Shown: positions 2,713 through 46,821 of the stretch, one piece after another
Layout: the number at the start of each line of letters is the position of its first letter
Position numbering within the stretch: position 1 is the first letter of the stretch
Source of the DNA: Gemmatimonadota bacterium
Lineage (GTDB): Bacteria > Gemmatimonadota > Gemmatimonadetes > Gemmatimonadales > GWC2-71-9
Assembly (NCBI GenBank): GCA_041487875.1
Contig: JBGPOE010000009.1
Span: forward strand, 3,836-67,835
Reading direction: 5' to 3'
DNA: 64,000 bases
Position numbers and translations under genes: made by a program
The notes under the pieces: generated by a model
What the model saw: the letters and a program-made list of their open reading frames with translations, nothing else
What the model was told of the DNA's origin: nothing
Databases searched by the model: none

Positions 2713-2739
2713 GGCGATCCTCGCTGTGGTGGCGGGCGA

Positions 2740-3081
2740 TCACTGCCCCGCGCCCAACTGCTGCTGCCGGTGCTGCGAAAGCAGCCGCTCGGCGAAATCC
2801 AGACGCTCGGCAAGCTCGGCAACATCGCCGCGCAGCTGCGTCAACTCCTGCTCCATTCCCGCCACCCGGCGATCCGTTCCCGGGTCCGTCCCTGTTCCCC
2901 CGAACTTCCGGCGCGTCCGTTCGCGGAACCGCTCGGCCCACGCTTCGCCCAGGGGCGAGCGCAGCGCGAACCTCAGCCCGAGGACGATACCGATCGCCGC
3001 GACGATCTGCGCGAGCAGATCGAAGACCCTCGCCGCGAGGAAGTTCATGTCCGGCAGACCGGGAGGCAGCGGCCCTTGCAT
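2740..3081 (-). CDS. Small single-TM coiled-coil protein, ERxDFxERLL-tail family, copy 4
   Basis: 113 aa. Hydrophobic helix LLAQIVAAIGIVLGL and C-terminal LRGDVAELAERLDFAERLLSQ. An alternative ATG exists at 3048. GAGGGGGG run upstream. Confidence 0.7.
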   Translation of the reverse strand: MQGPLPPGLPDMNFLAARVFDLLAQIVAAIGIVLGLRFALRSPLGEAWAERFRERTRRKFGGTGTDPGTDRRVAGMEQELTQLRGDVAELAERLDFAERLLSQHRQQQLGAGQ

Positions 3082-3100
3082 GTGCTGTCTACGCCCCCCT

Positions 3101-3116
3101 CGAAACCCGAGTTTCG
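3101..3116 (-). promoter_or_regulatory. Small perfect hairpin between copies 3 and 4 (6-bp stem, 4-nt loop)
   Basis: Plus strand cgaaac-ccga-gtttcg, located in the 45-nt gap 3082-3126. Confidence 0.3.
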
Positions 3117-3126
3117 GTCGCGATGC

Positions 3127-3384
3127 TCACGGCTTGAGCTGCTCCGCGCCCCGGACTTTGCTCAACAGCCGCTCCGTAAAATCTACTCGCTCGGCCAGTT
3201 CCGCTACCTCACGCCGCAACTCTTCAACGGCCGCGAGCACTTCCTCCTTGTCGCCCATGTCGGGCGTCGCCGCCTGCGCCTGCAGGCGCGCGTTCTGCGC
3301 CTTGGTGATGGTCACCGCGATCATCCAGCCAAAGAACCCCACGATCGCGACCATCGGAATCATCAGCGCGACGACGTCTTCCAT
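3127..3384 (-). CDS. Small single-TM coiled-coil protein, ERxDFxERLL-tail family, copy 3
   Basis: 85 aa. TM LMIPMVAIVGFFGWMIAVTI and tail LRREVAELAERVDFTERLLSK. Confidence 0.75.
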   Translation of the reverse strand: MEDVVALMIPMVAIVGFFGWMIAVTITKAQNARLQAQAATPDMGDKEEVLAAVEELRREVAELAERVDFTERLLSKVRGAEQLKP

Positions 3385-3387
3385 GTG

Positions 3388-3648
3388 TCAGTGCCCCCGG
3401 TCGAGCTTCTCGACTTCGCGCTCTCGCGCGAGCAGGCGCTCGGTGAAATCGACCCGCTCGGCCAGCTCGCCCACTTCGTGACGCAGCTCCTGCAGCTCGG
3501 TGATGATCTGCTCGCGCTCCCCGCCGTCATCGCGCGCCGGACGGTGCTCGCCGCCGATCCGCTTGGCCACCGCCGCGGCGATGGGGCGCAGCACCCAGAA
3601 GGCGCCGCCGAAGACCATGACCGCCACGACCCCTTCCTGAGGACTCAT
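3388..3648 (-). CDS. Small single-TM coiled-coil protein, ERxDFxERLL-tail family, copy 2
   Basis: 86 aa. TM VVAVMVFGGAFWVL and tail LRHEVGELAERVDFTERLLAR. ATGA overlap with copy 1. Confidence 0.75.
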   Translation of the reverse strand: MSPQEGVVAVMVFGGAFWVLRPIAAAVAKRIGGEHRPARDDGGEREQIITELQELRHEVGELAERVDFTERLLAREREVEKLDRGH

Positions 3649-3938
3649 GCGCGCCCGCTTCCACCCTTCGGCAATGCCTGCTCCCGGGTTTGCGCCAACA
3701 AGCGCTCGGCAAAGTCCATCCGCTCACCCAACTCGCCCAGCTCGCGGCGCACGCCGTCCAACTCGCCTTGCAAAGACTCGCGGTGCTCCGCCAAGGCGCC
3801 GCGCACGTCTTCCGCGTCTCCCGCGGCCTGCCCCCGGATGCGCGCCGCCACGGCGCGGCCGATGGGAGAGAACGCGATTCCCACGGAGGCGGCGCCGCCG
3901 AAGAGAAAGATGATCGCGAGAATGCCTTCGATGTCCAT
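3645..3938 (-). CDS. Small single-TM coiled-coil protein, ERxDFxERLL-tail family, copy 1
   Basis: 97 aa. TM ILAIIFLFGGAASVGIAF and tail VRRELGELGERMDFAERLLAQ. GGAGGGG SD-like run just upstream of the ATG. Confidence 0.75.
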   Translation of the reverse strand: MDIEGILAIIFLFGGAASVGIAFSPIGRAVAARIRGQAAGDAEDVRGALAEHRESLQGELDGVRRELGELGERMDFAERLLAQTREQALPKGGSGRA

Positions 3939-3964: not shown

Positions 3965-6814
<2,850 letters not shown>

Positions 6815-6887
6815 AGCAGTGGAGCGTACCAAGTATCGGGGACCGCGGTCAACGGTGTCCCTTCGGGCGTCGCGCGGCGTGCTTGCC

Positions 6888-6916
6888 TTGCCTAAGCTTC
6901 GGTCGCACCATAGCTT
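6888..6916 (+). promoter_or_regulatory. Candidate sigma70-type promoter for the cutA operon (TTGCCT-N17-TAGCTT)
   Basis: Hexamers at 6888-6893 and 6911-6916, with the ATG at 6927. This geometry implies a near-leaderless mRNA. Confidence 0.3.
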
Positions 6917-6926
6917 AGCCCTTCTC

Positions 6927-7250
6927 ATGCTCAACGAGCCCCTGGTGGTCCTCACCACGCTCGCCTCGGCCGACGAGGCGCGGGCGTTCGTGCGCGCGCT
7001 GGTGGACGCGCGGCTCGTGGCATGCGGCACGTTGCTCCCCGGCGCGACGTCGATTTACCGCTGGGAGGGCGCTGTGACCGAGGAGCCCGAGGTCGTCGTG
7101 CTGCTGAAGACCGATGCGTCGCAGTGGGACGCGCTGGCGGCGGCCGTGCAGGAGCACCATCCCTACGAGGTGCCCGAGCTGCTCGCGGTGCCGGTGGCTC
7201 GCGGGTTGGAGGCCTACCTAGCCTGGCTCGCCGCGGAGGTGGCCGCGTGA
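6927..7250 (+). CDS. cutA: Divalent-cation tolerance protein CutA
   Basis: 107 aa from the internal [59 protein letters not shown]. This is the CutA1 fold signature. Confidence 0.85.
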
Positions 7251-46542: not shown

Positions 46543-46821
46543 ATGCCCGACTGGATCTGGATTCAGAACGTCATCTTCCCGATCCTGGGCATGGCGATGG
46601 GGACGTTCTTCGGTTGGACCATCCTCAAGATGATCAACCGGCATTTCGAGCGGCGCGCGGAAGAGCGGCGCCTCACCTTGGGGGGCGCGGGTCCGGCCGA
46701 GGAGACGCAGGCGCAGATCGACGCGCTGCGAGAGCAAGTCGAGGCGCTCGCGGAACGCCTCGACTTCAACGAGCGCCTGCTCGCCCAGCAGAACGACCGG
46801 GCGCGCCTGCCGCGCGCCTGA
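46543..46821 (+). CDS. Small single-TM coiled-coil protein, ERxDFxERLL-tail family, copy 5 (dispersed)
   Basis: 92 aa. TM VIFPILGMAMGTFFGWTIL and tail LREQVEALAERLDFNERLLAQ. Confidence 0.7.
   Translation: MPDWIWIQNVIFPILGMAMGTFFGWTILKMINRHFERRAEERRLTLGGAGPAEETQAQIDALREQVEALAERLDFNERLLAQQNDRARLPRA

Follow-up and report, generated by a model that had tools for sequence, protein, structure and literature searches.

Paralogue arrays upstream of pspA in Gemmatimonadota encode candidate PspB-like membrane partners of PspA

To our knowledge, how PspA/IM30/Vipp1-type ESCRT-III proteins are recruited to damaged membranes is understood in only a few groups of bacteria, through PspBC in Proteobacteria, LiaI in Bacillus, and PspM in mycobacteria. 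Here we analyzed a 64,000-nucleotide stretch of a Gemmatimonadota genome (contig JBGPOE010000009.1; hereafter the window), in which four tandem paralogous genes (copies 1 to 4) encode small proteins ending in a near-identical helix with the motif ERxDFxERLL and lie directly upstream of pspA. An earlier sequence-only reading of this DNA had proposed that they form a locally amplified family of PspA partners. We found that such an array precedes pspA in all 70 related Gemmatimonadota loci that reach far enough to show it, and that its products share a weak, apparently specific similarity with PspB. We think it probable, though far from certain, that the array proteins are PspB-like membrane partners of PspA, acting as anchors or sensors and working without an adjacent PspC.

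What connects the array to pspA? By its match to PF04012, the product of the downstream gene is PspA/IM30, a bacterial ESCRT-III-like protein: it scores 158.8 bits against a cutoff of 33.9, with residues 2-219 aligned to profile positions 1-216 of 220, and so passes the Pfam gathering threshold over the full domain. We searched the six-frame open reading frames (ORFs) of 80 genome loci with a hidden Markov model (HMM) of the family and with the PspA, AI-2E, and UvrA proteins of the window. Seventy loci reach past the array far enough to be judged; in all 70 of them pspA follows on the same strand, at a median distance of 28 nt. The copy number of complete arrays ranges from 2 to 10: two arrays have 2 copies, 13 have 3, 19 have 4, 14 have 5, five have 6, five have 7, four have 8, and one has 10, locus L061 being the one with ten. 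In the closer relatives the gene order is uvrA-(x)-A-B-C-D-pspA-AI2E, where types A to D are positional orthologues of window copies 1 to 4. Type A is found in nearly every array, and type D is the final gene ahead of pspA in most related arrays.

The genes that flank this unit are less constant. AI-2E follows pspA in most Gemmatimonadales loci and is absent in L061, L063-L070, and L081; whether it belongs to the system is uncertain. In L065-L070 uvrA is about 2.6 kb distant, yet the array still precedes pspA. L081 and L086, which were reached through a divergent family member, have a peptidase S9 gene rather than uvrA upstream and DUF1611 rather than AI-2E downstream, and in both of them seven family genes stand before pspA. 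Because the array precedes pspA in L063-L070, L081, and L086, its linkage to pspA survives changed flanks. The synteny that the sequence-only reading had proposed to look for in related genomes is thus seen in all 70 of these Gemmatimonadota loci, including where both flanks differ.

Some lineages carry a further gene in this unit. In 11 loci (L061, L063, L065-L070, L078, L081, and L086) a gene of about 131 codons stands between the array and pspA. Domain scans, made in L081 and L069, identify it as CesT_Tir_1 (PF22550; L081 9942-10337, E 5e-24; L069 7956-8348, E 6.5e-28), and the other loci have a conserved homologous ORF in that place. The pairing of CesT/Tir with PspA is a PspA partnership described in a survey of phage-shock-protein (Psp) systems (PMC11237479), and by the scans of L081 and L069 these divergent Gemmatimonadota lineages carry exactly that dyad. 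The array of transmembrane (TM) helix proteins that precedes it is, by contrast, not part of the described system. The dyad behind the array implies that the array sits inside a bona fide Psp module. The window has no CesT/Tir gene, and its 27-nt spacer joins copy 4 straight to pspA.

The four array genes of the window are real and under purifying selection. With the orthologous array of locus L001 as reference, the four proteins are 80-89% identical to their orthologues, and the ratio of nonsynonymous to synonymous substitution (dN/dS) is 0.14-0.25 (copy 1, 0.14 at 80% identity; copy 2, 0.20; copy 3, 0.18; copy 4, 0.25). Together with the 19 columns that are invariant among the copies and the near-complete conservation of the motif across the family, these values put the pattern well outside what chance would produce. 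Third-position GC content is 0.84-0.88 in the array genes and 0.91 in pspA. Among the four paralogues the codons of the motif differ synonymously (cgg/cgg/cga/cgt, gac/gat, ttt/ttc, ttg/ctg/ctc/ctt), so the motif is maintained by selection on the protein and not by gene conversion.

The array is also an old set of paralogues with lineage-specific gain and loss. Pairwise, the four copies are 35-48% identical, with 19 invariant columns that include E-R-x-D-F-x-E-R-L-L, and it is because the paralogues are this divergent while retaining positional orthologues in the conserved A-B-C-D order that we regard the array as old. Recent amplification or gene conversion was considered and is ruled out by the synonymous differences within the motif together with the positional orthologues. 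The description of the family as locally amplified is misleading: what varies by lineage is only the copy number, between 2 and 10, and the paralogues are old rather than recent.

The family is large and unnamed. A profile of the four window copies, searched against protein clusters, recovered at least 3,787 clusters at 90% identity; at 50% identity there were 1,854 clusters with E<=1e-3, 198 of them with E<=1e-10. Source names of the members are all "hypothetical" or plainly arbitrary, no model reaches threshold for the family in Pfam and NCBIfam scans, and the motif strings are absent from the literature that we searched by text, in agreement with the earlier view that the family is uncharacterized. 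Every taxon-named member is from Gemmatimonadota or Gemmatimonadales, and the 80 best genome loci are all Gemmatimonadota metagenome-assembled genomes (MAGs); among named members the family has so far been seen only in this phylum. One locus, L037 (CAVORO010000003.1, a 1.52-Mb contig), is labeled Miltoncostaeaceae (Actinomycetota). The label is probably wrong, because over 12 kb the locus shares 86-89% DNA identity with the Gemmatimonadaceae/Gemmatimonadales MAG loci L034 and L014, and its gene order is the same.

Across 497 distinct family sequences the consensus is ..ila.i..fgG...l..sPvGrAlAeRIRgr ... eeL..Ele.LR.eVAELaERLDFAERLLAkqRea.RLgpg. The motif positions E-R-x-D-F-x-E-R-x-L are 96-99% conserved, and a second block, P-x-G-x-A-x-A-x-R-I, is conserved behind the TM helix. 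In one 120-aa family member, P0258 (L086 7001-7363), the ERLDFAERLL block occurs in duplicate; two array genes may have fused, or the protein may be a frameshift artefact of the long-read assembly, in which the neighboring genes are visibly fragmented.

Where in the cell would these proteins lie? We scanned 132 family members for windows of 19 residues with a mean Kyte-Doolittle hydropathy >=1.6 and counted lysines and arginines on both sides of the TM segment. A strong TM segment, beginning at about residue 5, is present in 130 of the 132. The mean K+R count is 0.15 before the helix and 3.4 after it, and the count is higher after the helix in 131 members. The predicted topology is N-out/C-in, and by this positive-inside charge pattern the motif helix would be cytoplasmic, in the same compartment as PspA. 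In copy 1 the TM helix spans approximately residues 5-23 and is followed by a basic juxtamembrane segment, SPIGRAVAARIRG, and then by the C-terminal helix that ends in the motif. Copy 4 has an additional N-terminal segment of about 20 aa with the sequence PPGLPDMNF, predicted to be periplasmic; across type D members this extension is kept as about 20 residues with PPGxDPNF, again with a predicted periplasmic location.

An AlphaFold2 model of copy 2, computed with the 132-sequence alignment, has a mean predicted local distance difference test (pLDDT) score of 89.4. It consists of a helix from residue 3 to 31 (TM plus juxtamembrane segment), a low-confidence linker, and a helix from 41 to 84, with pLDDT 97-99 over the motif. 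The single N-terminal membrane helix of the model and the hydropathy scan both bear out, as predictions, the earlier suggestion of membrane anchoring. On a helical wheel drawn at 100 degrees per residue the motif's D, R, E, F, L, and R share one face, F and L lying centrally and the charges flanking them on both sides, as is typical where coiled-coil helices carry a patch for binding another protein. A Foldseek search of the model against the PDB gave zero matches, and when PDB sequences were searched with a profile, nothing came up beyond generic proteins with a TM segment and a helix (ion-channel tails, ATP synthase b), at E >=7e-5.

How do the array proteins relate to PspB? The NCBIfam model of PspB, TIGR02976, is the top sub-threshold NCBIfam match for copies 2 and 3; copy 3 aligns over residues 6-75 to profile positions 5-66 of 75 (E 0.015), and the window copies reach 12.9 and 15.5 bits at best. 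The model is matched by 42 of the 132 members at E<=0.1, the best at 3e-6, and the next family, GspM, is matched by 13. PspB is the top match for 8 of 10 members scanned, mostly of type C, and several of these alignments are colinear from residue ~5 to ~72, that is, from the TM helix to the motif. Matches to PspB along the whole length are most frequent among members of type C. As decoys, each of the 132 members was shuffled within its N-terminus, TM helix, linker, C-terminal helix, and tail, so that architecture and composition were kept. None of the 132 decoys matches TIGR02976, whereas matches of the GspM type arise in decoys as well.

Two further comparisons point in the same direction. 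We built our own PspB HMM from 20 sequences of less than 80% identity (Enterobacteriaceae, Aeromonas, distant gammaproteobacterial, and metagenomic). Plasmids had yielded almost exclusively enterobacterial PspBs, with one from Aeromonas as the sole addition. At 12 bits or more it finds 36 family members, no reversed decoy, and no shuffled decoy; at 8 bits or more the counts are 154, 8, and 1. When hhalign was used with a diverse PspB alignment, the whole family aligned over 33 columns (P 6e-4, probability 28%), type A over 59 columns from the TM proline through the motif (P 3.8e-4, probability 36%), and type D over 40 columns (P 3.5e-5, probability 72%). In each case the ERxDFxERLL block fell on (E/D)R-h-x-x-L-E-x-I-L of PspB. 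With a narrow enterobacterial PspB alignment P was only 0.02, and it improved after diverse PspBs had been added. The sequence-only reading had seen no match to PspB. This remains correct at the curated thresholds, which no member reaches, and is too strong in view of the weak, apparently specific similarity beneath them (42 of 132 members against 0 of 132 decoys; hhalign P 3.5e-5 to 6e-4).

The likeness to PspB in architecture, topology, and operon context is clear. Both are small (75-115 aa), with one N-terminal TM helix and predicted N-out/C-in; both have a proline right after the TM helix, and hhalign aligns the two prolines; both have a zipper-like C-terminal helix, in which the PspB core ER-h-x-x-h-E-x-h-L is in register with ERxDFxERLL; and both share one gene string with pspA. 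PspB is bitopic with a cytoplasmic helical domain (PMC11237479). In E. coli, the C-terminal leucine zipper of PspB is needed for the inducing signal, PspB self-associates and binds PspC through its TM region, and contact between PspB and PspA was seen only with PspC present (PMC3068692). The differences are equally concrete. The D-F and the second R of the motif are missing from PspB, and the PIWLxLHYR and DAExPxWR blocks of PspB are missing from the family. PspB is one gene downstream of pspA, whereas the family forms 2-10 paralogues upstream of it, lacks an adjacent PspC and a PspF or sigma-54 signature near the array, and is so far known only from Gemmatimonadota.

Several results weigh against a PspB-like partnership with PspA. 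Pairwise BLASTP against real PspB is insignificant (E 7), no member reaches the curated PspB threshold (15-24 bits, the best shown being 24.4, against 51.7), and the Pfam model of PspB (PF06667) is matched by only 3 of 132 members at E<=0.1. There is no PspC gene among the neighbors of the window array or the called genes of L081, L082, L086, and L088, and no gene for a PspF-like activator among the array's neighbors. A search for sigma-54 -24/-12 elements with up to 2 mismatches, made with promoter tools that do not cover this phylum, found none near the array; the whole window has 7 such matches, where chance alone would give 14. Since every related locus belongs to a single phylum, inherited synteny could account for part of the linkage to pspA. 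Finally, two family members do not adjoin pspA, namely the type E copy of the window and P0169 in L087. Taking both sides together, we judge distant homology to PspB to be somewhat favored by the profile evidence, and unproven.

How might the array work? We infer a partnership with PspA and a role as sensor or recruiter from gene neighborhood and predicted topology. The products would be small bitopic inner-membrane proteins: from a short N-terminus outside, the chain would cross the membrane as one TM helix and continue through a basic juxtamembrane segment and a flexible linker into a cytoplasmic helix of about 45 residues that carries the invariant E-R-x-D-F-x-E-R-L-L patch. Their genes are tightly packed with pspA into a single string, from which all of the proteins would be produced jointly, and the translational coupling suggested by the ATGA overlap and the 3-nt gap is consistent with synthesis of the paralogues at a set ratio. 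The paralogues may associate through their TM and juxtamembrane segments and their coiled-coil helices into homo- or hetero-oligomers, as a conserved Gly/Pro/Ala pattern at the end of the TM helix and a heptad-like spacing of L and V in the C-terminal helix suggest. Displayed at the inner face of the membrane, the conserved patch could then anchor PspA polymers or regulate how they assemble under envelope stress. A patch this constant would be expected to have a common cytoplasmic partner, for which PspA is the obvious candidate, and the regions that vary among types A to E, namely the N-terminus and the TM segment, could provide different inputs or locations that lead to one common output. 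In some lineages, a CesT/Tir-like chaperone would be added to this set.

An origin independent of PspB is rather unlikely in our estimate. The array would then be an invention of this phylum and not a PspB derivative: a hetero-oligomeric platform whose ERxDFxERLL helix serves as a PspC-independent docking or nucleation site for PspA, with copy number (2-10) and N-terminal type deciding the place and time of PspA assembly.

Among the closest known systems, LiaI and PspM are membrane partners of PspA homologues that are specific to particular lineages (PMC11237479). PspM (Rv2743c) of actinobacteria is an integral membrane protein encoded beside pspA and unrelated to PspC, and it provides a precedent for phylum-specific PspA partners. 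Unlike the array, it is a single gene, in a clgR-pspA-pspM-pspN operon, and the NCBIfam PspM model is among the families listed for none of the 132 real members, while one shuffled decoy matched it. LiaI, the membrane anchor of the PspA homologue LiaH in Bacillus, is likewise a small membrane protein encoded directly upstream in the same operon. The order of liaI and liaH equals that of array and pspA and makes an anchor role plausible. LiaI differs in belonging to the multi-TM LiaI-LiaF-TM family (PMC11237479), whereas the array proteins have one TM helix and a long soluble helix; LiaI-LiaF-TM models gave no match among the families listed in our Pfam and NCBIfam scans of members.

The array proteins could, in another reading that we consider unlikely, be mainly signal transducers, which under stress would bind PspA or some other factor and thereby set free a putative transcription regulator, as PspB and PspC do in Proteobacteria. 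The similarity to PspB would suit such a role, given that the zipper of the E. coli protein is needed for signal transduction (PMC3068692), and the different N-terminal types could sense different cues. What speaks against it is the neighborhood, in which we found no PspF-like activator, sigma-54 -24/-12 match, or other regulator gene, and the position of the array in pspA's own gene string, which is closer to liaI-liaH than to a separate sensor.

Inherited synteny without any functional link would make the array a set of generic small coiled-coil membrane proteins, resembling FtsB/FtsL, ATP synthase b, or GspM, that happen to lie between uvrA and pspA. The restriction of all loci to one phylum, the existence of orphan copies, and weak matches to GspM (13 of 132), ATP synthase b, and FtsL agree with it. 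We nevertheless find it improbable. The link to pspA persists when uvrA and AI-2E are replaced or lost and the link to uvrA does not; GspM-type matches occur in shuffled decoys and PspB matches do not; and FtsB and FtsL have the topology opposite to the predicted C-in arrangement. Very improbable, finally, is the idea that the array encodes membrane-perturbing clients or toxin-like peptides buffered by coexpressed PspA, which recalls the proposed PspC toxin and PspB antitoxin of E. coli, where an excess of PspC reduces the proton-motive force and PspB works against this effect (PMC3068692), and which fits small, hydrophobic proteins present in many copies beside a membrane-repair gene, and which is at odds with strong purifying selection that falls on the charged cytoplasmic helix and not on the TM segment and with positional orthologues that are stable and old, unlike toxin cassettes.

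Is the array expressed together with pspA? The packing of the window genes (Table 1) is operon-like. The TGA stop of copy 1 and the ATG of copy 2 overlap as ATGA at 3645-3648, copies 2 and 3 are separated by 3 nt (3385-3387), the spacer ahead of pspA is 27 nt, the AI-2E gene lies 23 nt past pspA, and the minus strand shows no terminator-like site from uvrA to the AI-2E gene. The spacing by itself suggests that array and pspA are cotranscribed. The sole sigma-70-like match falls within the beginning of copy 1, its hexamers lying at 3937-3910. Purine-rich runs stand ahead of copy 1 (GGAGGGG), copy 4 (GAGGGGGG), and pspA (GAGGA). In these features the sequence-only reading proved accurate: the four minus-strand ORFs were found again with the same coordinates and sizes, the C-terminal blocks that it had quoted as near-identical match exactly within a shared architecture, and the overlap, the gap, the Shine-Dalgarno-like runs, and the continuation into pspA and an AI-2E permease were all seen, as was the fifth copy that it had counted.

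Table 1. Array genes and associated features in the window
Feature	Position	Strand	Details
Copy 1 (type A)	3645-3938	minus	97 aa; motif ERMDFAERLL
Copy 2 (type B)	3388-3648	minus	86 aa; motif ERVDFTERLL
Copy 3 (type C)	3127-3384	minus	85 aa; motif ERVDFTERLL
Copy 4 (type D)	2740-3081	minus	113 aa; motif ERLDFAERLL
Spacer between copy 4 and pspA	2713-2739	minus	27 nt; Shine-Dalgarno-like GAGGA
pspA (PspA/IM30)	1948-2712	minus	254 aa; PF04012, E 2e-46
AI-2E family transporter	824-1924	minus	PF01594, E 1e-50
Type E, fifth family member	46543-46821	plus	92 aa; motif ERLDFNERLL

The junction between the array and pspA is constrained in length. Among 59 junctions that a motif search recovered, 35 have a spacer of 27 nt, and a GAGG lying about 7 nt ahead of the pspA ATG is conserved. 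The final array gene and pspA, between which stand one stop codon and usually 27 nt (window 2713-2742), are in the same frame in 53 of 71 loci, and most spacers measure 27, 24, 21, or 18 nt, all multiples of three. We attribute the constraint to the conserved GAGG, a Shine-Dalgarno sequence that precedes the pspA start. Stop read-through, which would fuse copy 4 to PspA, was also considered; it is contradicted by extra in-frame stops in several loci, by variation of the stop codon (TGA 41, TAA 10, TAG 8), and by spacers of 26, 25, and 2 nt.

Beyond the array, the type E copy of the window scores 64 bits with the family HMM and lies between a gene for a Na/Ca exchanger and one for a CitMHS/ArsB transporter. 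The same exchanger/transporter context recurs in three other contigs, and in L060 type E copies occur within the pspA array. By domain scan, the neighbors of the window array are CutA1, TPR, Macro-domain, transglutaminase-like, uvrA, and AI-2E genes, with uvrA upstream of the array and ending at 3965. The uvrA ORF (3965-7030, minus), read from a GTG at 7030, overlaps the CutA1 gene at 6681-7250 (plus; PF03091, E 1e-33). The true start of uvrA probably lies around 6820 (MADSLIVRG...), in which case uvrA and cutA would be neighbors in divergent orientation.

What is new here relative to known PspB proteins? As judged from the sequences, the family would be set apart by its distinct invariant motif, its arrays of 2-10 genes upstream of pspA, the lack of an adjacent PspC, and its occurrence in one phylum so far. 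Two broad surveys of Psp systems describe PspB as rare outside Proteobacteria, or as present in 26% of phyla, and note occasional PspB duplicates and the CesT/Tir-PspA dyad (PMC11237479, PMC9239133). A keyword search of the text of the same two surveys found mention of neither Gemmatimonadota nor such arrays (PMC11237479, PMC9239133).

Why does this matter? The Gemmatimonadota gain a concrete candidate set of PspA partners. What makes the set useful is the size of the unnamed family, a motif of 10 residues that hardly varies and is open to mutation, the naturally occurring range from 2 to 10 paralogues, and a built-in variant with CesT/Tir. If the relationship to PspB is true, the range of PspB would be far extended, and PspB could work without PspC; if it is false, the array would represent a new PspA-binding module. 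Either way, the family warrants a definition of the Pfam kind.

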